A stretch of 63,741 nt of DNA, the filler included, from Ferroacidibacillus organovorans (GTDB lineage: Bacteria; Bacillota; Bacilli; Alicyclobacillales; SLC66): assembly GCF_001642725.1 (NCBI RefSeq). It is 4 parts of 4 records of this genome, joined end to end, with 100 filler letters (N's around TTAATTAATTAA, not from the genome) between each part and the next. Parts side by side here need not be neighbours in the genome. Positions count along the whole stretch, not along the records: positions 17,144 to 33,438 come from NZ_LSUQ01000059.1; 3 more parts are not named here. One strand, given 5' to 3'. Below, one piece after another: positions 17,144 to 48,562 of the stretch. Each line of letters begins with the position of its first letter. Position 1 is the stretch's first letter. Both the position numbers and the translations under genes were made by a program. The notes below the pieces were generated by a model, which was not told the origin of the DNA, did no database searches, and saw only the letters and a list, made by a program, of their open reading frames with translations.

Positions 17144-17213
17144 AACACCTCGAATCGATTTACTTATTTTCACACTCTCGATTCGCTGTGTCCACCACTA
17201 AAGCCTAACATCA
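17144..17213 (+). mobile_element. IS3-family right end
   Basis: GTGTCCACCACTAAAGCCTAACATCA (17188-17213) matches the end of the IS3 remnant at 45809-45834 in motif and length; ends in CA. Confidence 0.6.
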
Positions 17214-17698
17214 AGTTGATAGGAGCAGCGCATGGTGATTCTCCGGTAACAGCTGTGGGTTACCGGAAGCTACTGGGCACGCCACTGTCAGAAATCCCAC
17301 CGGAGGACGCAATCCCCTTGCTGCGTTGTCCCGTCCGACCCGTCGTGATAGAGGTCATCGAAGACTTCTTAGCCAGACCACAGAACTTTCAATTCGAACC
17401 TGTTCTGCTTCATGGCGATCTCGCTGCTGAACACACTTTGGTCAACACAGAGACAGGTGAAATCGGTGTGATTGATTTTGGCGATTGCGGAATGGGTGAT
17501 CCCGCGTATGACGTGTGGCCAGAGTTGACACCATTTTATCACGGCCCGATGGATGAATTGTTCTGCGCACGGCAGGGGTTTTACCGCAAGCTAGCGCCAT
17601 TTCACGGTGTGCTGCATGGACTGTTGATCTGTGACGACGTGCTGGTGACGAATGCTCTCCGGCAGGTAGAGGCAGAGTATGCGGGGAAGTCTGAGTAA
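17214..17698 (+). pseudogene. aminoglycoside phosphotransferase-family gene, 3' part (IS-split, probable internal deletion)
   Basis: HGDL and VIDFGD motifs; joins in frame to 33539-33788 through a shared AGT. Confidence 0.75.
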
Positions 17699-17928
17699 CC
17701 AATATATGCAAAAATTCGTGTCATGTCATTTGCTGTGGCAGAGCAAGTCGGGATGTACTTGGAGAGACGTGCAATCTTCAAGGGACAACGGGTGTGCATC
17801 TCTTTATGAGGAACGGAGTTCTATGCCGGGACATGATCCGGTCGAATCACGATTTGTAACTTTTTTGGCGACTCGTATCCTTCTGGTCGTCTCAATCGTT
17901 AATCTAGTGTCAGCAGGAAGGAGGCGGC

Positions 17929-18666
17929 ATGGTGTCCGTGCAAGGTGTATCCATACATTCATTGGAATCATCCCAGCAGATGGACCGTAAAGAGATTTCG
18001 ATGCTTCGTTCACAGTTGGTGCGGTACTGTGAGTTCTTGAGCGGCTCAAAGCACGATGCACAGGATCTGGTACAGGCAACGTTGCTCAAGGCCATGCCAG
18101 TGCTGAACGGGGAGCAGTCACATCCAAACCTGCCTGCACTGCTCAAACGTATTGCAAAGAACACCTGGCTCGATCATCTCCGCAAGCAGGGTAAGAATCA
18201 GTTTTTTGATCCAGATGAATGGGTTGATCACTTATGTGTAGACCCGCAGGATTCCTCATCGCTGGAAGAGGCGTTGCAGGTTCTGGTAGCAACCTTGACA
18301 CCCGGACAGCGGGCAGTCGTTCTTCTCTGTGATGTGTTTCAATATACGGATCGTGAGGCAGCAGAATTGCTTCAGATAAGTCGTGGTGCGGTAAAGGCGA
18401 CCTTGCACCGAGCAAGGGTACGGTTAGAACTCTTCAAGGAAGGTGTAGAGATCTCACCTGTCGCTGACGAAACGCAGAAGGAGATCCTGGAGGCCTATGT
18501 ATCCGCATTCCAATCAGCGGACGTCTGCATGCTCATCCATCTTTGCCAAGACGGTGCTCTCGATTCGATTCAGGCCACGACCAAAGTTCTCGCAATTGTG
18601 CAGCGACAAGCTGACACGAGAAAGGCGATCGACCACAATTCGATATCCATGTTGGCCGCCGCATAA
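17929..18666 (+). CDS. ECF RNA polymerase sigma factor with C-terminal extension
   Basis: DAQDLVQAT region 2; EAAELLQISRGAVKATLHRAR region 4; AGGAGG RBS. Confidence 0.88.
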   Translation: MVSVQGVSIHSLESSQQMDRKEISMLRSQLVRYCEFLSGSKHDAQDLVQATLLKAMPVLNGEQSHPNLPALLKRIAKNTWLDHLRKQGKNQFFDPDEWVDHLCVDPQDSSSLEEALQVLVATLTPGQRAVVLLCDVFQYTDREAAELLQISRGAVKATLHRARVRLELFKEGVEISPVADETQKEILEAYVSAFQSADVCMLIHLCQDGALDSIQATTKVLAIVQRQADTRKAIDHNSISMLAAA

Positions 18667-18691
18667 CACATTTTGAGAGGGGGATTCGTCC

Positions 18692-19270
18692 ATGGCACTC
18701 ATTCCGTATGTGATTGAGCAAACCAGTCGTGGCGAACGCAGCTACGACATCTATTCAAGGCTTCTGAAAGATCGAATTGTAATGGTAGGTTCCGAAATCG
18801 ACGATGACATGTCAAACGCAATTGTGGCCCAACTTTTATTCCTCGCAGCGGATGATCCGGACAAGGACATTCAGATGTACATCAACAGCCCAGGCGGATC
18901 GGTCACGGCGGGTTTCGCCATTTACGACACGATGCAGCACATCAAACCGGCCGTATCGACCATCTGCGTGGGCATGGCCGCGAGTTTCGGCGCGGTGTTG
19001 TTGACAGCAGGTGCGAAAGGCAAGCGATTTGCGCTACCAAACAGCGAAGTGATGATCCATCAGCCTCTCGGTGGAGCCAGAGGGCAGGCATCTGACATCA
19101 AAATTCATGCGGATTGGATTTTGAAGACTCGGGAGAAAATCAACGCACTTTTGGCGAGACACACGGGGCAACCCATCGAACAAATCGCAGCGGATACTGA
19201 CCGGGATCGGTTCATGAGCGCCGAGGAAGCGAAACGTTACGGCCTCATCGACGATGTGATTGCAAGGTAG
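18692..19270 (+). CDS. clpP: ATP-dependent Clp protease proteolytic subunit
   Basis: [24 protein letters not shown] (Ser), MIHQP (His), DRD (Asp). Confidence 0.96.
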
Positions 19271-19292
19271 AGTTTGAGAATGGAGGCGAGAT

Positions 19293-20291
19293 ATGCGGAT
19301 TTTGATCTTGGGTGGCACAGCGTTTTTAGGGCGACACTTGGTCGATGTAGCTCTTACAAACGGCCATGAAGTCACGTTGTTCAACCGGGGTCAGACCAAC
19401 CCGGAGTTGTATTCGAATGTCGAAAATTTGCGTGGCGATCGGGATGGGAATCTCGATGCGCTCCGTGGGCGGAACTGGGATGCGGTAATTGACACGAGTG
19501 GCTATGTATCACGGATTGTTCGCCAGTCGGTGGAAATGTTGAAAGACGCCGTTATTCACTATACGTTCGTTTCGAGTATTTCTGTGTACGTGGATTTCTC
19601 CCAAGCCGGAATGGATGAGGACGCGCCAGTTGGAACATTGGAGGATGAGACGACCGAAAACGTAGCTGAGCATTACGGTGCACTTAAGGCGCAGTGTGAG
19701 AGGGAAGTTCAGTCGACGTTCGGTGATCGTGCGCTAGTTGTTCGACCAGGGTTGATCGTCGGGCCACACGACCCCACAGATCGGTTCACCTCCTGGGTGC
19801 GACGATTTGGACAGGGTGGGGAAGTCCTCGTACCAGGACGGCGTGACTATCCAATCCAGTTTATTGATGGAAGAGATTTGGCGGAGTGGATCATTCAGAT
19901 GGTCGAGCACAAGATGAGCGGCGTATACAATGCCACGGGTCCTGAAAAGGTGCTGACGATGGAGGACTTTATCGAAAACTTGAGGGATGCAATTCCATCG
20001 GCAGGAAGTGCAATGTGGGTTAGTGAAGTGTTCCTTCAGTCACAGGGTGTAAAAGAATGGGCTGAATTACCGCTTTGGATTTCTGACAAGACGGGTTGGC
20101 CAGGTTTTACAACCGTTAACGTCAAACGGGCGATTGCACAAGGTCTAACCTGTCGCCCCCTTTTAGAAACCGTACGTGATACTTTGAGATGGGATCAAAC
20201 ACGGCCGCAGGATAGCAATTTAAAGGCGGGGCTGAGCCATGAGCGAGAGCTTGACTTGCTGCGAACATGGAAGGCATGGGATGCCAGATGA
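19293..20291 (+). CDS. NAD-dependent epimerase/dehydratase (atypical SDR)
   Basis: LGGTAFLG, YGALK, RPGLIVGP. Confidence 0.88.
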   Translation: MRILILGGTAFLGRHLVDVALTNGHEVTLFNRGQTNPELYSNVENLRGDRDGNLDALRGRNWDAVIDTSGYVSRIVRQSVEMLKDAVIHYTFVSSISVYVDFSQAGMDEDAPVGTLEDETTENVAEHYGALKAQCEREVQSTFGDRALVVRPGLIVGPHDPTDRFTSWVRRFGQGGEVLVPGRRDYPIQFIDGRDLAEWIIQMVEHKMSGVYNATGPEKVLTMEDFIENLRDAIPSAGSAMWVSEVFLQSQGVKEWAELPLWISDKTGWPGFTTVNVKRAIAQGLTCRPLLETVRDTLRWDQTRPQDSNLKAGLSHERELDLLRTWKAWDAR

Positions 20292-21076
20292 CGACGGACG
20301 TCATTCGCACGGTCGTTGCGATTTATGATATTCACGGCAACTTGCCAGCATTGAACGCAGTGCTCAAGGAATTGAAGAACGTGCAACCGGATCACATATT
20401 GGTGGGAGGCGACATCGTTTCCGGTCCAATGCCTCGGGAAACATTGGATCGATTCTCTTCTCTAAACCTACCGGTTCACTTTATTCGTGGAAATGGCGAC
20501 CGTGAAGTGGTGACGGCCTTTGACGGCAAATCTCTGCCAGAAACGATGTCTGAAGAAGGGCGTCGTGTGACAGAGTGGGCTGCCGAACAGCTAGCACGTT
20601 CACAGAGAGATTTTCTGGCCCAGTTACCAGAGCGCATGACGCTTCAAGTGGAGGGGTTGGGGGATGTCCTGTTTTGTCATGCCACGCCTCATAGCGATGA
20701 GGAAATCTTCACACCAATTTCCACTTCAGAGTACATCAGTCGTATCTTTGCGGGTGTAGAAGAGTTATTTGTCGTATGCGGACATACGCACATGCAATTT
20801 GAACGCCAAGTAAAAGGATTGCGCATTCTCAATGCGGGGAGCGTGGGCATGCCTTACGCAGAGCAACCGGGCGCGTATTGGATGTTGATTGGACCGGATG
20901 GGTTCGAGTTCAGGCGTACGACGTATGACTTGGAAACAGCCGCGAGAGACATCGAAGCGAGCGGATATCCGCAAGCGCAGGAGTTTGTCAAGGAGAACGT
21001 GCTTGCGATTCCCACAGCAACAGAGGCAGCGCAATTTTTGGAGGGTTTGATAAAAAGGCACCGTACTGATGAATGA
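20288..21076 (+). CDS. metallophosphoesterase
   Basis: DIHGN, GGD, RGNGD, GHTH, NAGSVG. Confidence 0.88.
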   Translation: MTTDVIRTVVAIYDIHGNLPALNAVLKELKNVQPDHILVGGDIVSGPMPRETLDRFSSLNLPVHFIRGNGDREVVTAFDGKSLPETMSEEGRRVTEWAAEQLARSQRDFLAQLPERMTLQVEGLGDVLFCHATPHSDEEIFTPISTSEYISRIFAGVEELFVVCGHTHMQFERQVKGLRILNAGSVGMPYAEQPGAYWMLIGPDGFEFRRTTYDLETAARDIEASGYPQAQEFVKENVLAIPTATEAAQFLEGLIKRHRTDE

Positions 21077-21296
21077 TCAAGATGCAGAGGATAGGCATAA
21101 GCGCACTTATAAGAGGTGCATCGAATGATCTCCCAAGCCAAAAGTTTCCTCTGCAAATAGTGGTGGGAGCCATCGAAGTTAGAAGGTGGTTCTCTATCAC
21201 GCTTCATATCTAAAGATGTTTCACGTCAAGTGAGATGTTGAAATCAGTGAAAGTGCGAAGCGTTTTAATTTGGATTTTTAGAAATTTACCCGACTT

Positions 21297-21681
21297 ATCC
21301 CTTGGATATTCCTGAAGCCTTTCATACAGTATCAATGTCAAATCCATTCCTCAAAAGTTGTCGAACGACCTCGTGCTTCCCTTCTAAACGTGCCCATTCT
21401 TCACGTATCTCCGCTTTCCTCATTACGGATGCTTCGTCCAAAATCGCCATGCGTCTAGAGTGGTACTCGGCAAATGCCTTGGGATTGCGACTGATATCCT
21501 CCCACTTTTCAAATGCCTCTTTCATGGCCGGGGCCTTCTTTGCAATCGTCTCTAACTCATCTCGGATTTCATCGTTGTCCGCGACTTCCAGTAGCAGTAA
21601 ACAGCGAACGAGTCGATCTTCATGTAAATTGACTGCATTTTTACGCCAGTTCGTCAGCAATTTTGGAATCTCCATGAGATA
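21297..21681 (-). pseudogene. Rpn / PD-(D/E)XK transposase-like protein, C-terminal fragment
   Basis: EIPKL...AMKEAFEKWEDIS...YHSRRMAILDE...LLRNGFD; premature TGA at 21322-21324; nuclease domain absent. Confidence 0.7.
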
Positions 21682-22329
21682 AACATTTGGATAGGCAAGT
21701 GAAACGCGCTTTGGACACCCAGTGTGCGACGGCTGGGTACACCGAGTTAGAGTGTGACGGTCGCTGGGCCGCCTTACAGACACGAACCTGAACGGAAGCT
21801 GGTCTTATAGCCACGCCAGGCGTCCCGAGAGTTCGAGCGACACCAGGGACTACACGAACACATGGCGTCATTCGGGCTGTGAAACTTGAGGTCGCTTGGA
21901 GGGAATTCGGTAAAAGGTCATGTCTCGCCTTTTTTGTAGTTTCATGAGACAAGCCTCCTTGGCGTGATCGCGATACTGGAGAAAACAAAGAGGGTGGCGA
22001 TCCGATTCGCCACCCTGCCCACTACCGCATGTTATCATCTTACCTTCCTGAAATTCGAATAGGGTGCCAAGGTTGTGTCAATGAAAGAGAAAACGTTATC
22101 TTGACTCACTGATACGGGACGGCTTCAAGCGCCTCGTGTTCGATGATAAGAAAGGAGCAATCCTGGCGAAAGGGGACAGATTGGTCTTGAGTCCTTTTTA
22201 CAGCAAGAACGTATCTTCAATGTGTATACTGAGAATGAGGTAGAAAGAGAGCTATACGCGTTTCGTGACACTCAACCAAGGGTGTATTCAGCTATCTATC
22301 AGGATAAGTAATCACGTCTTTAAAGGCGA

Positions 22330-22363
22330 CTTACGCCGATTTCGGGCAGTAGTGCGCAGTAAG
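22330..22363 (+). repeat. putative cassette recombination site
   Basis: CTTACGCCGATTTCGGGCAGTAGTGCGCAGTAAG; 19 nt identical to the integrase-proximal site at 47564-47582. Confidence 0.7.
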
Positions 22364-22385
22364 ACACAAGAAAAGGGGCGTCAAA

Positions 22386-22958
22386 GTGTCATCAATTAGC
22401 GGAATTCAGTTTACCGAGGTCAGTCTGAACGAAAAAGAGACACTTGCTCAATGGCTATCCTCAGATGAGTGGGACAACTTTAGTAATTCGAGTATCTCAT
22501 TTGAAAAAGCAGTCGGATGGATTGAGCGTGGCGGTTTACACGGAGATGATAAGAAAACATTTTGGATTGAAGTGGGGTCGCAGAGCAAGGTTGGACTTAT
22601 ACAACTGTACGATTTACTTGATTCAACCGCTATGTTTGATATCAGAATTAACACGAGTCACCGCGGCGTAGGAATAGGACGGAAGGCAGTAAGTTGGTTG
22701 ACTAACTTTGCATTTGAAAATTACACAGAAATCACACGCCTCGAAGCTAATACACGACAAGACAATGTTGCTATGCGCAAAGTTTTGCTGTCATGTGGAT
22801 ACGTAAAGGAGGCTCATTATCGAGCTGGATGGAAAACAGGTGAGAGTCCGTTGGATTGGGTTGATTCAGTAGCTTACGCGATTCTTCGCTATGATTGGGC
22901 TAATTGCACGACGACCTCCGTATTCTGGGATGACGAAAAGTCCTTTACGTCTTCTTGA
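22386..22958 (+). CDS. GNAT (RimJ/RimL-like) acetyltransferase
   Basis: RGVGIG, TRQDNVAMRKV, GYVKEAHYR; lower GC; stop codon lies inside the next repeat. Confidence 0.85.
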   Translation: MSSISGIQFTEVSLNEKETLAQWLSSDEWDNFSNSSISFEKAVGWIERGGLHGDDKKTFWIEVGSQSKVGLIQLYDLLDSTAMFDIRINTSHRGVGIGRKAVSWLTNFAFENYTEITRLEANTRQDNVAMRKVLLSCGYVKEAHYRAGWKTGESPLDWVDSVAYAILRYDWANCTTTSVFWDDEKSFTSS

Positions 22959-22983
22959 GGTAATGGGGCCAAATCTGCAATAG
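22951..22983 (+). repeat. putative cassette recombination site
   Basis: CTTCTTGAGGTAATGGGGCCAAATCTGCAATAG. Confidence 0.55.
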
Positions 22984-23031
22984 TCATCACGGAGCCGCTG
23001 GTGTAGGATTATACAGGTACGCGTCGCGGGG

Positions 23032-23065
23032 TTTGCTGCAGTTTCGGGCAGCATAATTGGAAAAG
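23032..23065 (+). repeat. putative cassette recombination site
   Basis: TTTGCTGCAGTTTCGGGCAGCATAATTGGAAAAG. Confidence 0.6.
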
Positions 23066-23161
23066 AAGATGCCCCCGTTTCGATTATCAATACCTTATTT
23101 ATCAAGGTATTATCGATTCCTATACTTGATTCAAAGTCGTTTCTGATTCGGGGGTGCCCAG

Positions 23162-23941
23162 ATGCCGATTAATTTCATTGATGAACGAAACAAGTTCACT
23201 TATACCGGCAGAACTGCTGATGAATCTTGGACTAAAGCAATTTTGTCCATTGCTGATCCCAACGGTCTTTGTATTGCCGATGTTGGATGTGGTGGTGGCA
23301 TTTATTCAAGGGCTTGGCTTGCATTAGGGGCAAGGGAAGTCACAGGAGTAGACAGCTCACCAAACATGATTTCGGCAGCTACAGAAAGTTGTTCTGATTT
23401 ATACAGTATCTTGTTTCAAGTCGGTGATGCGGCAAACACGGGGTTAACCGAGAGTTCAGTCGATGTCGTGTTTCAACGAGCTTTGATTCATCATCTGACA
23501 GATATTCGCCCCTGTCTAGAGGAAGCAACCCGAATCCTGAAGCCAGGAGGGAAGGTGATTATTCAAGACCGTACTCCCGATGATATTGCGTTACCAGGTT
23601 CATGTGAACATATTCGGGGATACTTCTTCGAATGCTTTCCACGACTTTTGAAGCTCGAGTCTGGTCGTCGTAGAACAGATGAAGCAGTTCTGAGTGAACT
23701 ACATACCGTCGGATTCGAACAAACTAAGTCGATAACTGCGTGGGAAACTAGGAAAGTATATCCATCAAAGGAAGAGTTCCTTGAAGACGTTCGACAGCGA
23801 AAAGGGAGGTCAATTTTGCACGAGCTTAACGCTAGTGAAATCGGATTGCTGGTCTCATTTATCGATGAGAGGTTACATGATTTTGATGAAATCATCGAGA
23901 AGGATCGATGGACTATTTGGATTGCAACAAACCCACGATAA
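23162..23941 (+). CDS. class I SAM-dependent methyltransferase
   Basis: DVGCGGG motif I; RILKPGG. Confidence 0.88.
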   Translation: MPINFIDERNKFTYTGRTADESWTKAILSIADPNGLCIADVGCGGGIYSRAWLALGAREVTGVDSSPNMISAATESCSDLYSILFQVGDAANTGLTESSVDVVFQRALIHHLTDIRPCLEEATRILKPGGKVIIQDRTPDDIALPGSCEHIRGYFFECFPRLLKLESGRRRTDEAVLSELHTVGFEQTKSITAWETRKVYPSKEEFLEDVRQRKGRSILHELNASEIGLLVSFIDERLHDFDEIIEKDRWTIWIATNPR

Positions 23942-23953
23942 TTCCCACCCTGG

Positions 23954-23987
23954 GTTCTTGCATTTACGGGTGCAAGTCCTGAAGAAG
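23954..23987 (+). repeat. putative cassette recombination site
   Basis: GTTCTTGCATTTACGGGTGCAAGTCCTGAAGAAG, just after the gene stop. Confidence 0.6.
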
Positions 23988-24034
23988 AGTAGCCTGCTCC
24001 TTGTTGCATGAATATTCAATGTGAGGTAGTCACT

Positions 24035-24069
24035 GTTCTTCGGATATGGGGGCAGGAATACGACGTAAG
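24035..24069 (+). repeat. putative cassette recombination site
   Basis: GTTCTTCGGATATGGGGGCAGGAATACGACGTAAG. Confidence 0.55.
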
Positions 24070-24131
24070 CGGACTGCGTTGACGGCAAGAAAACATGCCT
24101 TGGAATAGTAGATTGGAGGAATGAATTCTCT

Positions 24132-24989
24132 ATGACACGAGAACCGGGACAAATGCAAAACAAAATGTTTTTGCGCGAGATCATCGAATCTGATCAGTTG
24201 CCGTCCGGTGAGAACGCTGGGCAATTCGCGCGTGAATTGATGCAAAACTTGGTTTCTTCTGATCCAGAGCTCCGAGATGATCTAACGTATCGGCTGATGG
24301 GCATGCTTAGCGTCGGAGGACACCTCGGATTCTCCGATCACGAAGAGTTACTCGGGATGTCGACGGATGCTGAGCATCTATTCCATGGAATCGGAGAATC
24401 AGGCACGGACACGGTCTTTATGCGATCATTCTCAGCCTTGATGATTCCGCTATTGCTAGTACACGGCGAATATGCTCACAGATTCAGCACATCAGTAGTG
24501 GAGGAAGTAGCTAATCGCCTCCTGAGCTACGCCATCACCGAGCGGGACTGGCGCGGGTATGTACCAGACAAGGGGTGGGCTCATTCTGTTGCACATACAG
24601 CTGACGCGCTTATGGCTTGTGGCACCCACCCGGCAGCAACCAAGGAGTTGGGTGACTCAATTCTGCAGGGTATCAAACATCTTGCAATGGTCCCGTATCC
24701 TTTAGGATACCTGGAAGACGACCGATTGGCGTTCGCCGCGTTCTCGATCATCCATCACAACAAGACTGAGTCAGCTAACATTCAACGATGGTTGGACTCA
24801 TTTCAACTCGTAACGGACCAAGATAATGATGGGGATGAGACATTGTGTGGGGCAAACGCGGAACACTTTCTACGGAGCCTCTACTTTCGGTTCCTGCATG
24901 CAGATCGAATGAATACATGGCTCGAGAGAGTCGTTGAGGCTCTGGCGCGATTCGATATCTATCATCTTGACTGTTTACCAGGCAGTTAA
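24132..24989 (+). CDS. DUF2785 domain protein
   Basis: DPELRD, VFMRSFS, RGYVPDKGWAHSVAHTADAL, EDDRL. Confidence 0.85.
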   Translation: MTREPGQMQNKMFLREIIESDQLPSGENAGQFARELMQNLVSSDPELRDDLTYRLMGMLSVGGHLGFSDHEELLGMSTDAEHLFHGIGESGTDTVFMRSFSALMIPLLLVHGEYAHRFSTSVVEEVANRLLSYAITERDWRGYVPDKGWAHSVAHTADALMACGTHPAATKELGDSILQGIKHLAMVPYPLGYLEDDRLAFAAFSIIHHNKTESANIQRWLDSFQLVTDQDNDGDETLCGANAEHFLRSLYFRFLHADRMNTWLERVVEALARFDIYHLDCLPGS

Positions 24990-25172
24990 CGTGATGGAGG
25001 TTTGGTAGACTAGTAGAAAAGCAAATCAACTTCTTGTTGAAGGAATACTCCTAGGAACTGCAAGGAAGCTCTTGACATGATTATGCGTTTGTTACCGCGA
25101 CCGTCTTGCTGCGCAATCAGGCAGAAAAACGCAACACGCATGCTATGTAATTTTTTCTCAGGAGGTGATTTT

Positions 25173-25466
25173 TTGTCAAAGCTAAAACGTTGGTGGTTTC
25201 CTACATTGCTTGCTCTCATTATTCTTTTCGTGTGCGACTTTTTGTTTTTCACTCGACCATTGATATCTTATCAACGGGCTCTACGAATCGCAAACGAAAA
25301 AGTGAAGAATGTAGCCTCAAGTTCACAAGTACAGTTCGGTGAGGTTAGACTGGCTTGGTACGACAATGGACGACTGTTTGATCCACGTAGAGTGTATATC
25401 GTTACTGGTCAAGACAATGCTCGACAGTTCACTATCAACTACGTGCAAGCACTTGTTGATGCTTGA
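25173..25466 (+). pseudogene. small membrane-anchored PepSY-like protein, probably with a premature stop
   Basis: GGAGGTG RBS plus TTG; N-terminal TM; VDA*NGKVI resembles a PepSY end interrupted by TGA. Confidence 0.45.
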
Positions 25467-25591
25467 AACGGCAAGGTGATTGCTATCTATAGCATCGATC
25501 ATCCATATCAAAACATGTTTTCACAGACAAGTGTGAGGAAAGCTGAGCAGGTAGCGGAAAACTATTTAAAGCCTCCAAAACAGTGATGAAA

Positions 25592-25626
25592 TTTGTGTTG
25601 CTAACGGAGGCGTGTCTAGAACATAG
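25592..25626 (+). repeat. putative cassette recombination site (degenerate)
   Basis: TTTGTGTTGCTAACGGAGGCGTGTCTAGAACATAG. Confidence 0.4.
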
Positions 25627-25719
25627 GATCGCCTGTCAGACTGCGTAAATATACAATGGTGAAGTGATGCAAGTTCCGTCACAATCGAGCAGAAGAACGA
25701 CAGAAAGGGGGATTCATCG

Positions 25720-26193
25720 TTGGAAGTAGTGCATGCCACGATGGACGACATTACCGAGTGGCTAAAACTGGCGGCTGAAGTGGAATATTTATTTGGATCT
25801 ATGGTTAGCGACCAAAATTTCGTTAAGGGATTAGAAAAAACCATTGGTCGGAATTCGGCTTATTGCGTACGACTCAATGGCGGTCCACCAGGTAGTCCAT
25901 TACTTGGAGGATTGTTGTGGTCATCTAATCCTCCCACATACAAAATAGGCTGGTTATCGGTGTCTTTTAAGGCACGAAAGCAGGGCGTAGCGACCGAATT
26001 ACTTAATTATGTGTTTAGGTTGGTAAAAACTCCCGCAGAGGTAGTGGTCACTACTTTTGGTGATAATGTAATTGAAGGGCGACCTGCAAGGATGCTGTAT
26101 AAGAAGTTCGGATTTGTTCCATTGGACGAGCCACTTCCGAATGGTCCAGAAGGTGTTTCGCGCCAAAAATTCAAGAGGATTTTGACCTCGTGA
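25720..26193 (+). CDS. GNAT acetyltransferase
   Basis: RKQGVA and ARMLYKKFGF motifs; lower GC. Confidence 0.85.
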   Translation: MEVVHATMDDITEWLKLAAEVEYLFGSMVSDQNFVKGLEKTIGRNSAYCVRLNGGPPGSPLLGGLLWSSNPPTYKIGWLSVSFKARKQGVATELLNYVFRLVKTPAEVVVTTFGDNVIEGRPARMLYKKFGFVPLDEPLPNGPEGVSRQKFKRILTS

Positions 26194-26524
26194 AATTGTA
26201 CTCACGTGGGTAAGAACTGAAGCCTCATCCCACGTGGTTCTTGCATGAAAATTCTCTCTCGTCGATGGCACCGAAACGATTGGGCAGAAGTGCTACGGAT
26301 TAACCGTGTGATTTGACTGTAAGGGATGTGTCGGCATAACTGTTTATCTTTCATATCCATCTACAGAATTTCAAAACGAGTATTTGTCCTTTTATCACGA
26401 ATGGGTTGGGAGAGGAGAAGACATGATACCATGGGTCATTTCCAAAGACCCTTCAAATTTTCATGGAATGGTTCATTTTCTCAAGACACACCTTCGTTTT
26501 TGGATACAGCTATAAGCCTTGGAA

Positions 26525-26557
26525 CTTCTTGACCAAACGGGAGAAGTATGCAACACG
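26525..26557 (+). repeat. putative cassette recombination site
   Basis: CTTCTTGACCAAACGGGAGAAGTATGCAACACG. Confidence 0.5.
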
Positions 26558-26577
26558 AAAGTTGAGGGATATGGCGA

Positions 26578-27330
26578 ATGCATTCGATGGTAGCATATGA
26601 AAATGCAATTGTTGATGGGATACCGGTCTCCCAATTTGCACTTAGAGAGCGTACATCAGAATCACTGCCTACAATCTTCTTGTATCACGGTTGGGACTCA
26701 GCTAAAGACAACTACGTATTTGAAGCCGAAGTCTTGAGTCTGTTTGGTTTCCGAGTGATTGTGACTGATGCACCACTTCACGGAGATCGTTCGGTTGAAC
26801 GAAACGTACAAAGTGACTTCTGGAAGGTTATAATTCAATCGGTCGAGGAATTCAAGAGTCTCTTGGATTATGCCCATCTTACATGGGGAGTTAATGCGAA
26901 AACCAGTGCTTTAGTTGGAAGTTCTATGGGCGGATTCACTGTGGCTGGAATCTTTGCTAATTATCCGGATGTTCATTGTGTCGTTAGTATTAATGGTTCT
27001 GGGGCATGGGAAGAGTCTGAGGCTTTGTTCCGTCGCATGGATGGACGTAGCCCTGCCACCGATGAAGAATTACATCTGATTCGCCTGTTTGACCCAATAC
27101 GAAAAATAGCACGTCTACCACGTCGTCCAATTCTTCTGCAACACGGTGCTTCTGATTCCATTGTTCCGATAGACGGGCAACGTAAGTTCTATAAGGAATT
27201 GCTAAAGAATTACGTGGGAAATCATACAACGCTTGTTGAATTTCAAGAGGTTCCACGAATGAACCATTATATCAGTATCGGAATGTTTGAATACGTGTAC
27301 AAATGGGTAAGTGAACAACTCAAACGATAA
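26578..27330 (+). CDS. alpha/beta hydrolase (YjfP/YitV-like esterase)
   Basis: YHGW, GSSMGG nucleophile elbow, HGASDSIVP, NH. Confidence 0.85.
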   Translation: MHSMVAYENAIVDGIPVSQFALRERTSESLPTIFLYHGWDSAKDNYVFEAEVLSLFGFRVIVTDAPLHGDRSVERNVQSDFWKVIIQSVEEFKSLLDYAHLTWGVNAKTSALVGSSMGGFTVAGIFANYPDVHCVVSINGSGAWEESEALFRRMDGRSPATDEELHLIRLFDPIRKIARLPRRPILLQHGASDSIVPIDGQRKFYKELLKNYVGNHTTLVEFQEVPRMNHYISIGMFEYVYKWVSEQLKR

Positions 27331-27334
27331 GAGA

Positions 27335-27368
27335 GTTGTTGCGTTAGCGGGGACAAAATTCCAATAAG
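27335..27368 (+). repeat. putative cassette recombination site
   Basis: GTTGTTGCGTTAGCGGGGACAAAATTCCAATAAG, just after the gene stop. Confidence 0.6.
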
Positions 27369-27522
27369 GCGGTGCCTGAAATACGGAATACACATGCCAA
27401 ATTGCTGCTAAAAATAAGCGCTAAAGCTGATCTGAACATACGTGACGTACATACATCCGTCAATACTTTCCGCCGCTTGGATGTATACTGACGGGAAACC
27501 ATCCAGAGAGGATGATTCACCC

Positions 27523-27762
27523 GTGAACTCCAACAATGGTCAACACAAATTTACCAACCGCCTGATCCACGAAAAATCCCCATACCTGCTCCAACACGCC
27601 CACAACCCGGTCGACTTGTACCCATGGGGGCCAGAGGCGTTCCAAAAAGCAGTCCGCGAGTCGAAGGCTGTATTCCCCTCCATCGGCTATTCGTAGCCCT
27701 GAGGGGCTATGAATAGCAATATACGCTGAAAGTGGATTCGTTTATCGACCTGTCACTGGTAG
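27523..27762 (+). pseudogene. yyaL: YyaL/DUF255 thioredoxin-domain gene, 5' fragment with a 54-nt in-frame gap, truncated after TCHW
   Basis: [32 protein letters not shown], then after 54 nt TCHW followed by TAG. Confidence 0.85.
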
Positions 27763-27968
27763 CGGATCCGTAAACTACTCCAGCCGAGATATTTTCAAGA
27801 AACCAATACGTTTATTTACATGACCTCACTTTGTTTCACTTCCCTTCTGAACGCAGTACCACGCTAACTTGACGTCTTCAAAAAACGACCCGCGCGCGTT
27901 ATAATTACCTTATGCAGTTGTGCAATATTGTTCGGGTCTATGCCGTTATGATAAAAGGAGGGCTGTCG

Positions 27969-28223
27969 GTGACTGTGGAGCGGGAAGAACTGCGGCGTTT
28001 GGTGGATGAACTCCCTGAAAATGAGCTGAATGCGGCACGCCGATACCTCGAATTCATTCGAGACGTGGGGAAGGATCCTGTTCGCTTTGCACTTGAAAAC
28101 GCTATGCTTGATGATGAACCGGAAACAGATGAAGAGAGGGAACGTGCCAAGCGGGCGGATGAGGATTTCATGGCTGGGCGAACGACGTCGATGGACGAAC
28201 TGAAGAGAGAACTGGGGCTATGA
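27969..28223 (+). CDS. putative type II antitoxin
   Basis: AAGGAGG RBS; acidic; C-terminal MDELKRELGL; ATGA overlap with the toxin. Confidence 0.75.
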   Translation: MTVEREELRRLVDELPENELNAARRYLEFIRDVGKDPVRFALENAMLDDEPETDEERERAKRADEDFMAGRTTSMDELKRELGL

Positions 28224-28480
28224 GATACGAGATTGAATGGTCTCAAGGGGCCCTGAAGGACATTCGGCGGTTGGACAAGCCGCTGATCGAGCGGATTACA
28301 CGCGCCATTGAGGTATTCGCCGAGACGGGTCGTGGCGACGTGAAACGTCTGATCAACGCGGATGGCGCGTATCGTTTGCGCGTGGGCGAGTGGAGAGTTC
28401 GGTTCCGCTTTGTTCATAGAGAGATTCAAATTATGCTCATCCAGGCTGTGTTGCCTCGGAGTGAAGCGTACAAACGCTGA
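28220..28480 (+). CDS. RelE/ParE family toxin
   Basis: ALKDIRRLD, GDVKRL, YRLRVGEWRVRF, RSEAYK. Confidence 0.88.
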   Translation: MRYEIEWSQGALKDIRRLDKPLIERITRAIEVFAETGRGDVKRLINADGAYRLRVGEWRVRFRFVHREIQIMLIQAVLPRSEAYKR

Positions 28481-28629
28481 CTTGCGCAGATGACGATCGG
28501 CTTTTCACTGTGGTTTCGTGCTGCAGCGTTCAGTGGAAGCTATGATCGCCTTCAACAGGTGAGCAAAACAGTCATTGCTATCCAACTGTTGGTCATGATT
28601 TTGGAGAAGTTCGTATGATTCCCCTTCAC

Positions 28630-30123
28630 TTATCGAAGCTTCACCTGAATATCGACCTCATCCCCGTTTCGCGTATATTCGATCCGCAGAGTGATCAGCT
28701 TCATAAGCCGATTCCGCTCCTTTACGTTGATAGCGGTTGTCCAGGACGCTTTGAGTTCATCAATCATCTGCAGCCGTTCGGCGTGAATGAGGGGCGAGTA
28801 CCCGTCCAAGCTCTCCTTTAGTTGCTCGTAATCGTTCTCCTTCTTCACAATGAGCTCCTTCAGGCGTTGCAGCCGCGTTTTGTATTCCAACTTTGTCACA
28901 TCGCCCATGACGAACAAGTCCTTGAGCCGATTTACTCCATCCCGCAGCGATTCGAGTTCTCGCTCCTTCGTGTGCAGCAGATGCTCCGTCGGAATTCCCG
29001 ATTCGTGAATTTAAATCGGCGTTCTCAGGAGCTCCGCTTCGTGTTCGCGTAGACTCTCTATGACCGCCCTTTCCACATGTTCGAGTTCGATCCCGCGATT
29101 GCCACAACATTTCCCAAAGGTATCCGTCTTCTGACACTTCTTCACGAGTGTGCGACCGTTCGGTTTCGGTTGGAACTGCAGGGAGTAGCCGCATTTGGCA
29201 CAATAGAGCAAGCCGGAGAGCAGGTATGTGCCGCGACGTGCGTGCTTGGGCTGGATTCGGCGGCTTTCAAGCAGCGTGACGATCCCTGCGTGTTCCTCCG
29301 GGGTCTTGACCGCTGGATGAGCATTTTCAACGACGATTCAGGTTTCACGTGGGATTACTTTGAACGGCGCAGCTTTACGTTTCTTGTGCAGTCCACCACT
29401 CGTTTTGCCGTAGACGACGCGACCGAGATGCACTTCATTCAGGATGAGCCGGTACAGCACGCTTTCAGACCACAGTTTGCCTTTCGGGGACGGGATGCAG
29501 CGACGGTTAAGCTCTCAGCAGACGCCGCTGCACGTGGCACCGCTCAAAATCCGTTGCTTCATGAAGTTGTAGACATCCAGTTTCTCGGGATCTACATCCA
29601 GGCTGTGGGCTTCTGAGTTATACACGTACGGGAAGGGGGCAGGACCGTTGGTCCAGTGGCCAAGCCTTGCCCCAATTTTCTTACCGCGCTGGAACCGCTT
29701 CTTAATCATCCGATACTCATACCGGGCGAAGACGCCCTCGATATCCGTGATCAGTTCCTGATCCTCATCGTTCAGGTCGTAGACGCGCTGTGGCGTGACA
29801 ACAAGGGTGTTCGACTTCTGAAGGGTCTTCTCTACCCGCGCCCGATCCTCTTTGTCGCCGCGACTGAGCCTGTCATAGTCCATGACCACGATGGCGTCAT
29901 AGAAATCATTCTCGATGTCCTTCAGCAGCCGTTTGAACTCGGGACGGAAATCGATACTGTCGGAACTGCCAATCTCCCGGTAAATGACATAGCGCCAGTT
30001 GTTTTTTCGAACGAGATCGGTAAGCGCGGTTTCGTGTTTGAGGAGGACATCTTCTTCATCGCCCGTGTCGTCCCGGCTTTTGCGCAAATACACAGCCACC
30101 TCATAAATTTTCTTCTGCTCCAT
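28630..30123 (-). pseudogene. large serine recombinase with three in-frame nonsense codons
   Basis: YLRKSR, DRLSRG, LYCAKCG zinc ribbon, coiled coil; single frame with stops at 29515-29517, 29338-29340 and 29011-29013. Confidence 0.88.
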
Positions 30124-30481
30124 GTCGTGTCACCTCGATTGTCAGGTTATAGTACGGATGTTCAGCTTGGCTCTGGGTTGCGGATGAAGTCAACGGCAGG
30201 AGATGGACGCCATTTCACGCTGCATGTGCGATATGGTGTCTTGGTGTGAAACCTGGGCACGGTCTGATGGCATACGTCCCGCCACATCGCCGCACACGTT
30301 GGCCCGTGTGCGGCGATTCGCGGCGCGGGCGACGGTAGGCAGATTTCCTCCAATCGCTGCGAATGCGGGGAACGTGTGGCGGCAAAGTTCAGGTAAGCAC
30401 CTACGGATAACAGGATTTGACTTGATGGCGGACGGGAACGAGAGTTACAGTCGGACAAACGTTTCCGGGAGTGGATCGCCA

Positions 30482-30760
30482 ATGTGTCAAATTGCGAAGA
30501 AACTATTGGCCGAAAAACTGATCGACGACTTTTACGAGGAATACGCGCGGGGCGGCGAACAGAATTCGCTGACCCAGCAAGACTTGGCTGACCGGCTCAA
30601 GGCGTTCTTGCCGACCGACCAACATGAATGGCTGTACCGATGGGAAGCCGAGTGCGTTGAGACCTGCGGCCGCGAACTATGGCGGTTTGCCGATTTCGTC
30701 GCGGGCATTTTGATGGGCACTCATCCTCATACAGAAGACGATGCGAGACGCGACGGGTAA
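30482..30760 (+). CDS. element-associated hypothetical protein
   Basis: Clear homolog of 53957-54247 (LLAEKLIDDFYE; ELxRFAxFVA). Confidence 0.7.
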   Translation: MCQIAKKLLAEKLIDDFYEEYARGGEQNSLTQQDLADRLKAFLPTDQHEWLYRWEAECVETCGRELWRFADFVAGILMGTHPHTEDDARRDG

Positions 30761-30781
30761 AATTTTGACGTAGGCAGATTT

Positions 30782-31006
30782 CTATCGATCCTGATTACCA
30801 CCCGTTTGTCTTCCTTCGGTCGTCATCCGATGGAGGATGCTGTGTAAGGCGGTTTGGAAGTTTTCCACCGCCTCTTTCGACGGTTCGTTACAAGTCAATC
30901 GGATGACGATGTTCCCGCAATCGAACGTGAAGGTCTTCACGTTACCGGATATCGCATCCGAAGTTTGATGACAATTGGGCTCGCACAAGTCTGTATGAGA
31001 CGCCAC
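30782..31006 (-). CDS. small hypothetical protein
   Basis: GAGGAGG RBS before GTG; PSKEAVENF motif; co-oriented with the relaxase-like gene. Confidence 0.5.
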   Translation of the reverse strand: MASHTDLCEPNCHQTSDAISGNVKTFTFDCGNIVIRLTCNEPSKEAVENFQTALHSILHRMTTEGRQTGGNQDR

Positions 31007-31045
31007 GGGAATTCCTCCTCTCGCAAATCATCCACAGCCTGTGAA

Positions 31046-32027
31046 TCACGATTTCTTTGTAAAGGGCGAGAATCGGGTTTGTTTCCCCAGCGGGGTTACC
31101 GAGCGGTATGTATTCCCGTCCGTTCTCGGAAACTCTTCAAAGCGTGATTCCCACTCCGAACGTCCGCTCCAGACCGACCCCAAAATACCCTCTGCGTCCA
31201 GTCGGCGTTCTGTAATGACCCAAACCGGCGGAATCGGCTGTCCCTTGAGATGGGTCTCAAGTAATCCGTCCCACAGTTCCAAAATTCGTTCGACGCGGTG
31301 TTCTTCCCGCGTGATAAATAAGATGTTGGCTGACCCCACATCTGCCCAAAACTTCGGGAGATGCGACGCGTAGTTCCACAGTTTTTGATACAACGTCCAG
31401 GCCGTGCTCACTGCCCGTATCGTATTCCACATGAAAGGTCACGGCCGAACCATCCGCGAAACGATAGGTGCCGATGCCATCTGGTCGAATGGGCGTTGCT
31501 CGTCGTCCTTTGGCGTCTGTGATGGCGTAGCGATCCCCGCTGTGCCGCATGCCAATCCACTCCACTAGCCCTTCATCGACATAAGAGAGGCTCTCTAAAA
31601 TCAGATTTGTAAAAAAGCAGTTTGTTCCGTACAGATGCACGACTTGGCTGGGTGGCGATCCTGGTTGACGCAGCAATGCAGAGCGGTTTTCCTTCGTGAG
31701 ACCGAGATTGAGTTGCAGCCCCGCCTTGGTCAACGACCATCCTTTGACATTGTGGCGCAGAAAGGTAAGGCGCATCGGTTGCACCCAATCCGATTTTTTC
31801 ATCTTGCCGAGTGTCTGGTACATCGTATCAGGCCGATAGTGCAACAGTGTACAGAGCTGATCGACGGTTAACATGGTGTATCGGTACAAGGCGAGCAGGA
31901 ATTCCTGCTCCTGGTTTCGAGGGGCCAGCAAGTGCGCGTCCTCCTTTCCTTTGCGGGCGGAATGTGGATATATGTCCCGATTGATTTGATTCGTCGATCC
32001 GCATGGTGGCGGGAACCATCCACTCAT
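31046..32027 (-). pseudogene. replication-relaxation (Replic_Relax) family protein, frameshifted
   Basis: RPDG and HVEYDTGSE; homolog of 57727-58698; frame changes near 31400. Confidence 0.8.
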
Positions 32028-32095
32028 CCGCCCGCTCGCGTTTTGTTGGGAGTTCCGTGTCGAGTACCGTGCGAAGTTTTGTTCGGTGTTTGAGC

Positions 32096-43008: not shown

Positions 43009-43773
43009 TCAATTCTGAATCCGTTGGAAGGTTTTTCTACGATTCGCTTCTTCCACAAACGCCTTCAGTCCATCACAATTTTTCTGAATGAATGTCGTCC
43101 ACAGCGTTCTCCCCATTTCGGTCAACTGTTCAGGTGTATAACTCCCAGCGACAAATTCTCCCCAATTCCCGTCACGGGTTAGTTTCTCCCATCCTACGAT
43201 GTCAGCAAATTTGTTGTTTTCGACGGGAACTGGTGAACCCGCAGACTGCGGTTTCACGTATTCCGGGCAGAGAAACATCACCGTACAAAGTCCAATAAGC
43301 CCTCCATGAATCTCATTGCGACCAGTCAGCCCGGCAATTTCCAAGGCTTCTTCGAACGCACCCCGTTGATGGTGTGGATGCACCACAACGATGTCTTTAT
43401 ACTTGAAATTCGTATGCTTAATGAAAGAGGCTAACCAGTATGAACCACCGTGACCAGACGTGATCACAAACTTTTTGAACCCCTGACGGCGCAGATTCAT
43501 AATCATATCTTCAACGAAAGCACTGATGACACTCGGACTGACGGTTACTGTGCCTTTGAAGGCTGCATGTTCCTCTGAGGTATTAAACGGCAGAACTGGC
43601 AGAACGTAGGCATTCAGGGCCTTACCATACTCGTTACCATAAAGTTCCGCAATCAACGTATCTACGTGCATTGGCAGCGTCGGGCCAAATTGTTCGGTTG
43701 CTCCGAGTGGGATCACGACTGTATCGACACGACTCGCCATTATCTCCGTCGTTGTGTTGGTATGATTTAGCAT
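43009..43773 (-). CDS. creatininase family protein
   Basis: PLGATEQFG, SEEH, SGHGG, EIHGG. Confidence 0.82.
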   Translation of the reverse strand: MLNHTNTTTEIMASRVDTVVIPLGATEQFGPTLPMHVDTLIAELYGNEYGKALNAYVLPVLPFNTSEEHAAFKGTVTVSPSVISAFVEDMIMNLRRQGFKKFVITSGHGGSYWLASFIKHTNFKYKDIVVVHPHHQRGAFEEALEIAGLTGRNEIHGGLIGLCTVMFLCPEYVKPQSAGSPVPVENNKFADIVGWEKLTRDGNWGEFVAGSYTPEQLTEMGRTLWTTFIQKNCDGLKAFVEEANRRKTFQRIQN

Positions 43774-47515: not shown

Positions 47516-47584
47516 CTCTCTCCAAAATTGCCCCTGTTTTCGTATGGCTCGCTGTTGAAGATAACTGCCCGAAATCGGCGTAGG
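47516..47584 (-). repeat. integrase-proximal site pair (candidate attI-like site at 47552-47584)
   Basis: Minus strand CCTACGCCGATTTCGGGCAGTTATCTTCAACAG then CCATACGAAAACAGGGGCAATTTTGGAGAGAG. Confidence 0.65.
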
Positions 47585-47726: not shown

Positions 47727-48562
47727 TCACTGCACGAAATATCGCTGATATGCTTGTTGGCGTATGGTGCCACTAAGGGATGCGTACAGCTGCGTGGTCT
47801 CTGGTTTCTCATGGCCCAAAATAGACTGCACGGCAACAAGGGGTGCGCCCTGATTGAGCAATACGGTTGCGAGGGTATGGCGAATCTTGTGGGGGCTGAT
47901 CTTGGTTTGCAAGTCGGATCGATTCGCGGTCCGATTGAAAATATACTCAATCTGATGAATCGACATCCGGTGCGGTTTTCTCTCGGTCACAAACAGCGCC
48001 ACATCCTTATCGCCGCGATAATTCAGATACCGCTGTAACCATATGCGGGCCTTCGAGCCGAAGTACACCTCTCGTTCCTTGTTTCCTTTCCCGATCACGT
48101 TCACACTCCCGCGCTGCCAATCAATCGCACTACGATCGAGTTTGTAAATCTCCCCCACCCGACATCCCGTGGCGAAGAAGAATTCCACGAGCGCATGCTC
48201 CAGGACACTGGTGCAAGAATCCCGCAACATTTCTAGTTCATCGATGGTGAGTGCCTTTGGCACACGTTTTCCAAGCTTCGGTTCCTTCAACTTCATGGTC
48301 GGATTGCGCACGAGGAGATCCTCTTCCACCAACCACTTGAATTGAACAAACTCATGATGGCCCGTACATTATACCCGAGACTGCTCGCTTTCAAATGCAT
48401 GTGCTGCTGCAGATGTTCCCGCAGTTGTTCCGACGTGATCGTGTCCCCGATGTCTTTTATCAACTGGTGATGCTGCACCCGGTACGCCTTTACTGTATAG
48501 GGCGAATACCCCTCCTGCGCCTGGAGGGTCAGATATCAGTTGGACGCATCATGCAATCGAAT
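47727..48562 (-). pseudogene. XerC/D-type tyrosine recombinase, about 280 aa, inactivated
   Basis: TGCR, GKG, HKIRH, LGH, TQLY catalytic set; N-terminal YSPYTVKAY; TGA at 48536-48538; TTCAA duplication frameshift at 48337-48346. Confidence 0.9.

Follow-up and report, generated by a model that had tools for sequence, protein, structure and literature searches.

By what mechanism were unrelated genes collected in a row, and in one orientation, in a member of the Bacillota? This question is raised by positions 22,330 to 27,368 of a DNA stretch of 63,741 nt from Ferroacidibacillus organovorans (NCBI RefSeq assembly GCF_001642725.1), which consists of four contigs joined by N's and is called the window in the following. 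Here, co-oriented genes, mutually unrelated according to Pfam, are separated by copies of a short oriented sequence. A preliminary description interpreted the region as a gene-capture array analogous to integrons or pdif modules. The computational analysis reported here supports this interpretation, with an activity that is predicted from the sequence. We regard it as probable that a dedicated Xer-like recombinase assembled this array of gene cassettes by site-specific recombination at 34-bp sites.

The array lies wholly inside one of the four joined contigs (C59, window 17144-33438). The genome to which the window belongs, G000, comprises 3.03 Mb with 52% GC in 98 contigs, which are given as C-numbers. 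Further G-numbers (G001, G004, G012 etc.) denote other genomes of the same order, and X5 to X8 are metagenome runs. The array genes had been described as mostly low in GC. This was confirmed, with 43-50% over positions 22000-28000 compared to 52% genome-wide.

Structure of the sites and of the junction unit

Sites were scored in bits with 23-nt position weight matrices (PWM) from 26 aligned repeat units. The eight strong motif copies proposed in the preliminary description were recovered on the plus strand at the positions given there, with scores of 8-21.6 bits. Two strong sites, 25105-25138 (18.1 bits) and 25673-25706 (16.6 bits), had been overlooked. Of the four weaker copies listed, those at 22050 (-2.4), 22158 (5.0) and 24966 (-1.2) are unsupported, and the one at 26268 is marginal (7.5). 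The motif, which had been taken for a single one of about 33 bp, is real. However, it is 34 bp long and occurs in two types, L and R, which at most junctions form a pair in direct order, with starts 81 nt apart, within a repeat of about 115 nt.

Logos were made of 45 R and 44 L sites drawn from 56 units (E<=0.01; G000 and 22 loci). The layout claimed earlier, inverted arms around an asymmetric core, is apparent in both. Two imperfect inverted arms of about 13-14 nt surround an asymmetric 6-nt core, and the outer consensus of the arms is CTTnTTG ... CAAtAaG. The R-type site has the left arm gTTnTTGCGcAttc and the right arm nAaagTnCAAtA; the L type follows the same plan. The core reads GGGCAG in 30 of the 45 R sites and GGG[G/T/C]GC (GGGKGC) in 29 of the 44 L sites. 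When the R logo was read by eye, 7 of 9 informative arm positions were complementary at equal distance from the core. By its sequence, the site is a pair of dyad arms with an asymmetric centre, like dif, lox or FRT sites.

For the repeat profile, the two best intergenic stretches of the array were aligned with two from a related array of G012, and nhmmer was iterated from these four seed units. This resulted in 33 matches at E<=1e-3 (G000 and the first loci) and 56 at E<=0.01 (G000 and 22 loci). About 20 copies are present in G000, grouped on few small contigs and always on the gene strand; a structure-free covariance model found 21. The matches are located behind the stop codons of co-oriented open reading frames (ORFs), with the stop 1-40 nt before the L core in 21/44. 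It was correctly noted before that two stop codons fall inside a site (TGA 22956-22958 and TGA 26530-26532).

Of 33 units, 16 have their L and R cores 81 nt apart, and for 32 the distance falls within 78-84 nt. Between the two sites the box TGTATGATTATAC, which resembles a -10 element, is the best-conserved part of the unit. Promoter-like pairs with a score of at least 8 of 12 were detected in the linker of 13/33 units, compared to 115/660 shuffles. The enrichment is weak, and the linker may be a source of promoters. A promoter and terminator scan of 21800-27800 gave no signal (9 promoter-like sites against 9.5 in shuffled sequence, 2 terminator-like sites against 4.4). No Rfam match was obtained for the whole array contig at E<=1.

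Enrichment and orientation of the sites

A lack of motif enrichment had been set beforehand as a result that would speak against the preliminary description. In 21800-27800, six sites outside the training set reach >=12 bits, compared to about 0.35 expected per 6-kb strand; this expectation is derived from 358 null matches >=12 bits per 6.07 Mb of reversed genome sequence. At >=9 bits the same interval contains 12 distinct places on the plus strand (10 intergenic, 2 intragenic) and none on the minus strand. Thus, the sites do point in the direction of the genes, as had been stated. The whole window holds 19 distinct sites at >=11 bits. Nine are located in the array, four in a second array on the minus strand and six elsewhere, the latter being no more than chance allows. 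Genome-wide, enrichment of the short matrix is confined to scores >=16 bits (28 L matches compared to 8 in the null sequence, 31 R matches compared to 5; the real counts include the training sites). Hence, the motif by itself is insufficient for calling weak single copies.

In its left arm and core, the first site of the array (22330-22363) is identical to the site that closes the module downstream of the recombinase gene in other loci. By its sequence it is an attI-like junction, with no recombinase gene beside it.

Homology breakpoints between genomes and strains

According to the preliminary description, homology of single genes should begin and end at the cores of the sites. This was found both in related genomes and in close strains. 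Sixteen arrays of 6 genomes were compared all against all, and high-scoring segment pairs (HSPs) of >=250 bp and <=98.5% identity were considered, in total 24 directional HSPs (12 pairs seen from both sides). Their ends fall within 10 nt of a called site in 15 of 48 cases, compared to 2% for random positions, and within 30 nt in 25 of 48, compared to 6%. Half of the HSPs (12/24) start between -2 and +9 nt from an R core. For example, the methyltransferase block of the window (23046-23946) is 88% identical to G012:C69:16825-17725, a part of another array; the block begins at the R core and ends at the left arm of the L site that follows.

Another array of G000, on contig C83, was searched against 64 genomes of the order and the ends were aligned. 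A metallophosphoesterase cassette is common to C83, G045 (86%) and G044 (79%); the shared sequence begins at an R core, comprises the gene and the complete unit behind it, and stops at the next GGGCAG. A GNAT cassette is shared by C83, G004 (81%) and G052 (93%), from just after the R core to the L site. Among the boundaries aligned residue by residue, none lies at the central box. For cassette genes without a unit (in G052 and at the end of the G012 array), the sequence beyond is unlike what follows the unit elsewhere. The flanks are discontinuous in these copies; thus the unit is not a simple insertion.

Close relatives were available from four metagenome runs of three studies, in which 31-40% of the sampled words of the stretch are present. 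In X6, X7 and X8, contigs agree with the window as far as 22349, where the first GGGCAG ends, and then proceed into three different continuations. One X6 contig rejoins the window at 23956, within the left arm of the L site that follows the methyltransferase gene, and matches it with about 97% identity to 25888. This joint (22349 to 23956) indicates a close relative in which other DNA replaces the first two cassettes; accordingly, cassette gene 1 (GNAT, 22386-22958) is missing in the X6 strain.

Some further differences were observed in the same material. Contigs of X5, X6 and X7 join 20429 to 22030 with one extra base, so that 1.6 kb are absent (window 20430-22029). The absent piece comprises the 3' part of a metallophosphoesterase gene and an Rpn/PDDEXK_2 fragment, and its boundary is not at an L or R site. 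In X5 and X6 contigs 302 nt (25889-26190) are skipped within the second GNAT gene, whereby this cassette gene is broken in those strains. In the complete genome G052, which belongs to another family, the GNAT gene of 93% identity to the C83 cassette is found at G052:C1:1291338-1291883 (locus L032). An L-like left arm forms the end of its homology; the different palindrome behind it may be a second type of junction element.

The Xer-like recombinase and its adjoining site

Recombinase genes are present in G000 on C83 and C61; each heads an array and is co-oriented with it. No recombinase gene adjoins the array at 22330-27368. The C61 copy belongs to the window and was compared by tblastn with an intact homologue of 280 aa: residues 77-281 match with 94% identity, and residues 1-78 are found in another frame with an in-frame stop. 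Among 30 recombinase matches in the order, 11 are intact with 280 aa (G004, G045 and seven other genomes). Co-orientation of the gene with the cassettes was seen in C83, C61, G004:C27, G044 and G001.

Past the stop codon of the recombinase gene, an R-type site (12.7-19.3 bits) was found on the same strand in eight of ten loci, with its end at a distance of 71-162 nt; the two loci without it contain truncated genes. When C83, C61, G004 and G050 were aligned, about 160 nt after the stop codon were shared, and divergence into different cassettes began right after GGGCAG. G033 diverges at an R-like sequence which overlaps the stop codon of the recombinase.

The best families for the recombinase are XerC (208 bits), XerA (186) and XerD (185), and none of the curated cut-offs (335, 220 and 330) is reached. 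The best match in the PDB is XerD (4e-31); the integron integrase IntI4 (2a3v) matches residues 200-264 only, with 44 bits. With the integron-integrase model TIGR02249 the recombinase scores 72-95 bits compared to a cut-off of 265. For the G004 protein this match is split in two, and profile positions 180-232, which we take to be the place of the IntI-specific insertion, are unmatched. According to PMC8138268, this family-specific insertion in the catalytic domain is defining for integron integrases.

Other Xer-type genes of G000 (C10, C80, C15) share 27-32% identity with the array recombinase, which is a paralogue. The closest annotated relatives found are plasmid-borne proteins named 'tyrosine-type recombinase/integrase' from Bacillus mycoides, Sporosarcina and others, with about 50% identity over 99% of the length in 38 plasmid records. 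These records include the large plasmids CP053689.1, NZ_CP146247.1 and NZ_CP036079.1. In two plasmid loci inspected, no co-oriented cassette array was found behind the gene.

Distribution of units and recombinase

The repeat unit was detected in 43 of 64 genomes of the order, namely in 17/18 of the window's family and in 25/45 of the other family, with at least 51 copies in the richest genome. Among 139 sampled genomes of the class outside the order, a single weak match was obtained in one. A loose pattern scan of public genome contigs yielded 119 loci. Two of them contain real units at strong E values (Alicyclobacillus tolerans and a metagenome-assembled genome of the Bacillota); three more (E 4e-4 to 8e-3) were taken as chance. 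Maps revealed arrays of co-oriented cassettes with a site after each ORF in nine regions of G000 and in G045, G044, G004 and G012. In the complete genome G045, 27 of 43 matches are located at 3.438-3.537 Mb and nine at 4.137-4.259 Mb, and seven are singletons; one array is about 29 kb long. At E<=1e-40, 20 genomes yielded a recombinase match, and the unit is present in each of them (20/20), compared to 23 of the 44 other genomes. In tblastn searches around the large arrays of G045 and G044 with the recombinase, a large serine recombinase and YyaL as queries, no match was found at 1e-5.

Proposed mechanism and alternative explanations

In the mechanism we propose, each site would be a core site of the double-strand type for a tyrosine recombinase, with a core that fixes the orientation and holds the crossover. 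The Xer-like enzyme would bind the arms as a dimer on double-stranded DNA and exchange the strands at or beside the core; its cutting of these very sites and the exact crossover point are deduced from the arrangement described above. R sites would mark the 5' boundary of a cassette, and L sites the 3' boundary just after the stop codon. The travelling part would begin immediately 3' of GGGCAG and end at the L core, and the L-R linker would form a second, ORF-less unit that is usually kept with the gene upstream. The R-type site downstream of the recombinase gene, which heads the array in the same orientation, would be the equivalent of attI for the exchange of cassettes. Since L and R cores share only GGG, an exchange between L and R would be confined to that side. 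Both recombinase copies of G000 are dead, and the array at 22330-27368 possesses only the attI-like site. Hence, it compares best with the cassette clusters of integrons that lack a recombinase (CALIN), and would be either a fossil or served in trans.

Several results weigh against cassette recombination by this enzyme. Both G000 copies of the recombinase gene are pseudogenes with an in-frame stop and a frameshift, the best-matching copy of G001 also carries stops or frameshifts, and altogether 19 of the 30 matches are partial or stop-bearing. Repeat-rich genomes without a recombinase match at E<=1e-40 exist, namely G012 (51 repeats), the complete genome G043 (29) and G027 (25). In G045 the gene lies more than 100 kb from the nearest repeat cluster, and no recombinase was detected by tblastn up to about 18 kb from the 29-kb array. 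As the cores of the two site types are different, a simple L x R exchange needs a crossover within the shared GGG. Several HSP ends are away from sites; several of these are ends of cut pieces or lie at sub-threshold sites. Strain joints off the sites were seen as well (20429 to 22030, 25888 to 26191 within the second GNAT gene, 27725 to 28447), and no repeat unit was found at the G052 copy of the cassette gene with 93% identity. Below 16 bits the short matrix shows no genome-wide enrichment, arrays and score thresholds were picked by the analyst, and the compared genomes are related, so that counts across them are non-independent. Excised circles or other recombination products were absent from the metagenome contigs, which hide rare joints.

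Some of these points would suit a unit that is a passive intergenic repeat, resembling repetitive extragenic palindromes (REP) or miniature inverted-repeat transposable elements (MITE), or a promoter/terminator module, with a mosaic formed by homologous recombination or microhomology. Scattered single copies in complete genomes (7/43 in G045), the many genomes that have repeats and no recombinase match, the -10-like central box and the somewhat higher frequency of promoter-like pairs than in shuffles are in line with this. However, the breakpoints lie at the L and R cores, and none of the residue-aligned ones at the best-conserved box, and the divergence of close strains begins at one exact base. 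A passive repeat also does not account for the flanks of unit-less gene copies, which do not continue beyond the unit, for the R-type site behind the recombinase gene in 8/10 loci or for the strict strand bias. Furthermore, nothing points to terminal inverted repeats with target duplications; both ends are direct repeats. We judge a passive repeat to be unlikely. Real recombination sites served by another enzyme, such as the host XerC/XerD in the manner of pdif modules, with the Xer-like gene as a passenger, would explain the persistence of arrays in recombinase-less genomes. The dif-like plan of arm, 6-nt centre and arm and the presence of other Xer-type genes in G000 (C10, C80, C15; 27-32% identity) also agree with another enzyme. 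In contrast, the recombinase gene and the R-type site form a conserved partnership, four loci diverge right after that site, and all sites are in direct order, unlike the alternating pdif modules. We judge the passenger explanation to be improbable.

Co-oriented single-gene cassettes with a site after each ORF, a GNAT-rich cargo and a variable first position are also what would be displayed by a true integron or by a CALIN whose attC sites have diverged. This possibility is ruled out, since three defining features (IntI, attC boxes and hairpin) fail. The recombinase remains far below the integron-integrase cut-off, with the unmatched profile segment mentioned above. Pairs of RYYYAAC...GTTRRRY with 40-130 nt spacing are lacking on either strand of 21900-27700, whereas shuffled sequences contain 1.15 on average. 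RNAalifold predicted no pairs (0) for a consensus of 26 units. Folding of 33 units with DNA parameters gave means of -12.4 and -10.5 kcal/mol for the two strands with mean z of -0.85 and -0.40, and 6/33 and 4/33 units below z -2. Hence the earlier statement that these are not classical attC sites holds, with neither boxes nor a consensus fold nor a strong hairpin. An apparent stem covariation in the unit is better accounted for by the inverted arms of the two sites.

Genes of the arrays

The coordinates of both arrays in the window are listed in Table 1. The gene identities proposed before, two GNAT acetyltransferases, an S-adenosylmethionine (SAM)-dependent methyltransferase, a DUF2785 protein and an esterase-like alpha/beta hydrolase, are confirmed by Pfam. 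Only the PepSY-like protein, cassette gene 4, could not be verified, as its ORF (25077-25466) has zero Pfam and NCBIfam matches. The start of this gene is likely the TTG at 25173 behind AGGAGG.

Table 1 Sites and genes of the two arrays, in window positions
Feature	Position	Strand	Evidence and remarks
First R-type site, core GGGCAG (22344-22349)	22330..22363	+	PWM 16.0 bits
Cassette gene 1, GNAT acetyltransferase	22386..22958	+	Pfam Acetyltransf_3 1.6e-13; stop codon within next site
Junction unit 1	22951..23065	+	L 22951-22984 (core GGGGCC), PWM 18.8; R 23032-23065 (core GGGCAG), PWM 20.0; starts 81 nt apart; nhmmer E 1e-15; covariance-model match G000:C59:5804-5926, 74.3 bits
Cassette gene 2, SAM-dependent methyltransferase	23162..23941	+	Pfam Methyltransf_11 5.8e-23
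Junction unit 2	23954..24069	+	L 23954-23987 (core GGGTGC), PWM 21.6; weaker R-like site from 24035 (8.0-9.3 bits, 1-nt offset), yet within nhmmer match 23958-24050, E 4e-9
Cassette gene 3, DUF2785 protein	24132..24989	+	Pfam DUF2785 1.1e-37
R-type site, core AGGCAG, no clear L partner	25105..25138	+	PWM 18.1; weak nhmmer half-match, 25076-25124, positions 50-97 of the hidden Markov model
Cassette gene 4, small hydrophobic protein	25173..25466	+	ORF list; 129-codon ORF from 25077
Junction unit 3	25592..25706	+	L 25592-25625, PWM 12.3; R 25673-25706 (core GAGCAG), PWM 16.6; starts 81 nt apart; both sites outside matrix training set
Cassette gene 5, GNAT acetyltransferase	25720..26193	+	Pfam Acetyltransf_7 3e-6
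Degenerate junction-unit remnant	26237..26290	+	L-like left arm; marginal R-like site 26268, PWM R 7.5; alone not significant
68-codon ORF fragment	26326..26532	+	ORF list; no Pfam match; stop within next site
Single L-type site, core GGGAGA	26525..26558	+	PWM L 13.5; directly upstream of hydrolase gene
Cassette gene 6, alpha/beta hydrolase (esterase-like)	26578..27330	+	Pfam Hydrolase_4 6.8e-11, Abhydrolase_1 3.7e-9
Last array site, core GGGGAC	27335..27368	+	Single; scores both L 12.9 and R 11.7
Conserved array end	27461..27760	+	Promoter region and first ~57 codons of YyaL/DUF255-type gene; Pfam Thioredox_DsbH 1e-15
Second array (contig C61)	43009..47435	-	Zn-ADH (zinc-dependent alcohol dehydrogenase) gene 46452-47435, small ORFs, junction unit, DUF2785, R-type site, creatininase; Pfam; sites PWM 17.9, 16.6 and 12.1
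Second array, creatininase	43009-43833	-	Pfam
Second array, R-type site	44038-44071	-	PWM
Second array, DUF2785	44336-45097	-	Pfam
Second array, junction unit	L 45193-45226, R 45112-45145	-	nhmmer C61 11679-11588, E 1e-12
attI-like R-type site	47551..47584	-	PWM R 14.1; core ends 162 nt past recombinase stop; first cassette after
Xer-like tyrosine recombinase pseudogene, head of second array	47727..48562	-	Pfam Phage_integrase 9.6e-37; contig C61

An Rpn/PDDEXK_2 gene fragment on the opposite strand lies upstream of the first array. This nuclease-like fragment and the region behind it (window 21322-22100) recur on C56 (82% identity) and in the relatives G001, G008, G032 and G033, often near arrays. 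Downstream of the array a serine-recombinase fragment, a relaxase-like gene and a coupling-protein-like gene were found by Pfam.

The array end at yyaL and the surrounding islands

G000 contains seven diverged copies of the 5' piece of a yyaL-like gene (about 300 bp) that closes the array. Those of C59, C72, C83 and C86 each terminate an array, and in three of these four cases the contig ends at the piece. In the window, a TAG at 27694 and a gap of 54 nt interrupt the yyaL frame, and a palindrome resembling an attachment site comes next. Behind ACCTGTCACTG, the displaced copies (C59, C68, C8) run on into an inverted repeat of the ~17 nt before it, which resembles an attP (window 27730-27790). 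About 700 nt upstream of the yyaL piece, a gene for a large serine recombinase of 497 aa is present in C72 and in G004:C27 (coordinates C72 8724-10217 and L037 7109-8602). The DUF255 fragment was considered as the target of the array recombinase and rejected; it belongs to a separate attachment site of the large serine recombinase. The arrangement fits islands which were inserted by a large serine recombinase and stack in tandem at a yyaL-like gene, with the arrays as island cargo.

A piece of about 870 nt (28632-29498) beside an ORF of 202 aa with a resolvase domain (29515-30123) recurs on C68 and twice on C56. More distant copies are found on C46, C72 and C69; the identity is 68-85%. These pieces probably derive from the large serine recombinase genes of several islands, either as diverged copies or as fragments.

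The interruption of yyaL was compared in 20 distinct copies (window 27686-27760 and 19 in C86, C54, C72, C83, C68 and C8 of G000 and in loci L003-L014 and L035). In all 20, the frame is cut by TAG right after ..SIGYS. A non-coding gap of 51-54 nt precedes the CxxC codons (ACC TGT CAC TGG) in the 18 copies with a readable anchor, and GGAG is located some 8 nt upstream of the gap's end. A 14-bp hairpin, in which changes are compensatory or of the G-T type, contains both the take-off codon TCG and the TAG in its 5' arm. Eight copies run on into the gene (a 628-codon ORF in G004), all with a gap of 54 nt (8/8). The last triplet of the gap is TCG in five of these eight, so that take-off and landing codon are the same; a bypass fits only partly. 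The gap resembles the bypass of phage T4 gene 60, and it may simply be the left half of the serine-recombinase attachment site. No description of this gap was found in a full-text literature search.

Relation to known systems and significance

To our knowledge, integrons are the textbook platform, and essentially the sole general one, for stockpiling single genes as mobile cassettes. The arrays described here share with them co-oriented, mostly single-gene cassettes with a recombination element after each, a tyrosine recombinase gene with an adjoining primary site, which is only a functional analogue of attI, and a cassette content that varies between close strains. Frequent recombinase pseudogenes, recombinase-less clusters and a cargo rich in GNAT genes and genes of unknown function are common to both. 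The 59-base element carries two simple sites, and so does the junction unit of about 115 nt. In contrast to integrons, the recombinase is Xer-like without the IntI insertion and is co-oriented with the cassettes instead of divergent. The units lack RYYYAAC/GTTRRRY boxes. Their two simple sites are direct and not inverted, which means that there is no hairpin unit, and no folding signal was seen. Both unit ends act as homology breakpoints, and cassettes can be large, with ORFs up to about 1.3 kb.

The pdif modules of Acinetobacter plasmids are likewise gene modules bounded by short sites of the type arm, 6-nt centre, arm. Their sites are recognised by Xer-type tyrosine recombinases, the host XerC/XerD, and are in alternating orientation around each module. 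In contrast, all sites of both window arrays are on the gene strand and none on the other, and long arrays occur together with a dedicated recombinase gene that has its own adjacent site. MITE or REP repeats differ in that the unit here is not a simple insertion. That no formal description of such a system was known had already been remarked, and our full-text literature search found none. According to Cury et al. (2016, PMC4889954), complete integrons were absent from all Firmicutes genomes surveyed, and half of the CALIN were located in genomes without IntI.

We tentatively propose, with more doubt than confidence, that a second, independent integron principle exists, confined to one order of the Bacillota, probably the Alicyclobacillales. 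It would comprise the capture and shuffling of gene cassettes by a Xer-derived recombinase at double-stranded 34-bp sites in place of folded attC hairpins, with alternating, promoter-bearing 81-nt linker cassettes that equip each captured gene with an expression signal, would still be active where the recombinase is intact, and would ride on islands stacked at one chromosomal gene. If true, the cassette architecture has evolved more than once, with another recombinase lineage and ordinary sites of the double-strand type. The components are short and defined (a 280-aa recombinase, 34-bp sites and a 6-nt core) and thus directly testable, with a possible use as an orthogonal recombination tool. 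It would also account for the many small contigs where these genomes break at such loci, and the arrays would be a new class of accessory-gene reservoirs in acidophilic, thermotolerant Bacillota.

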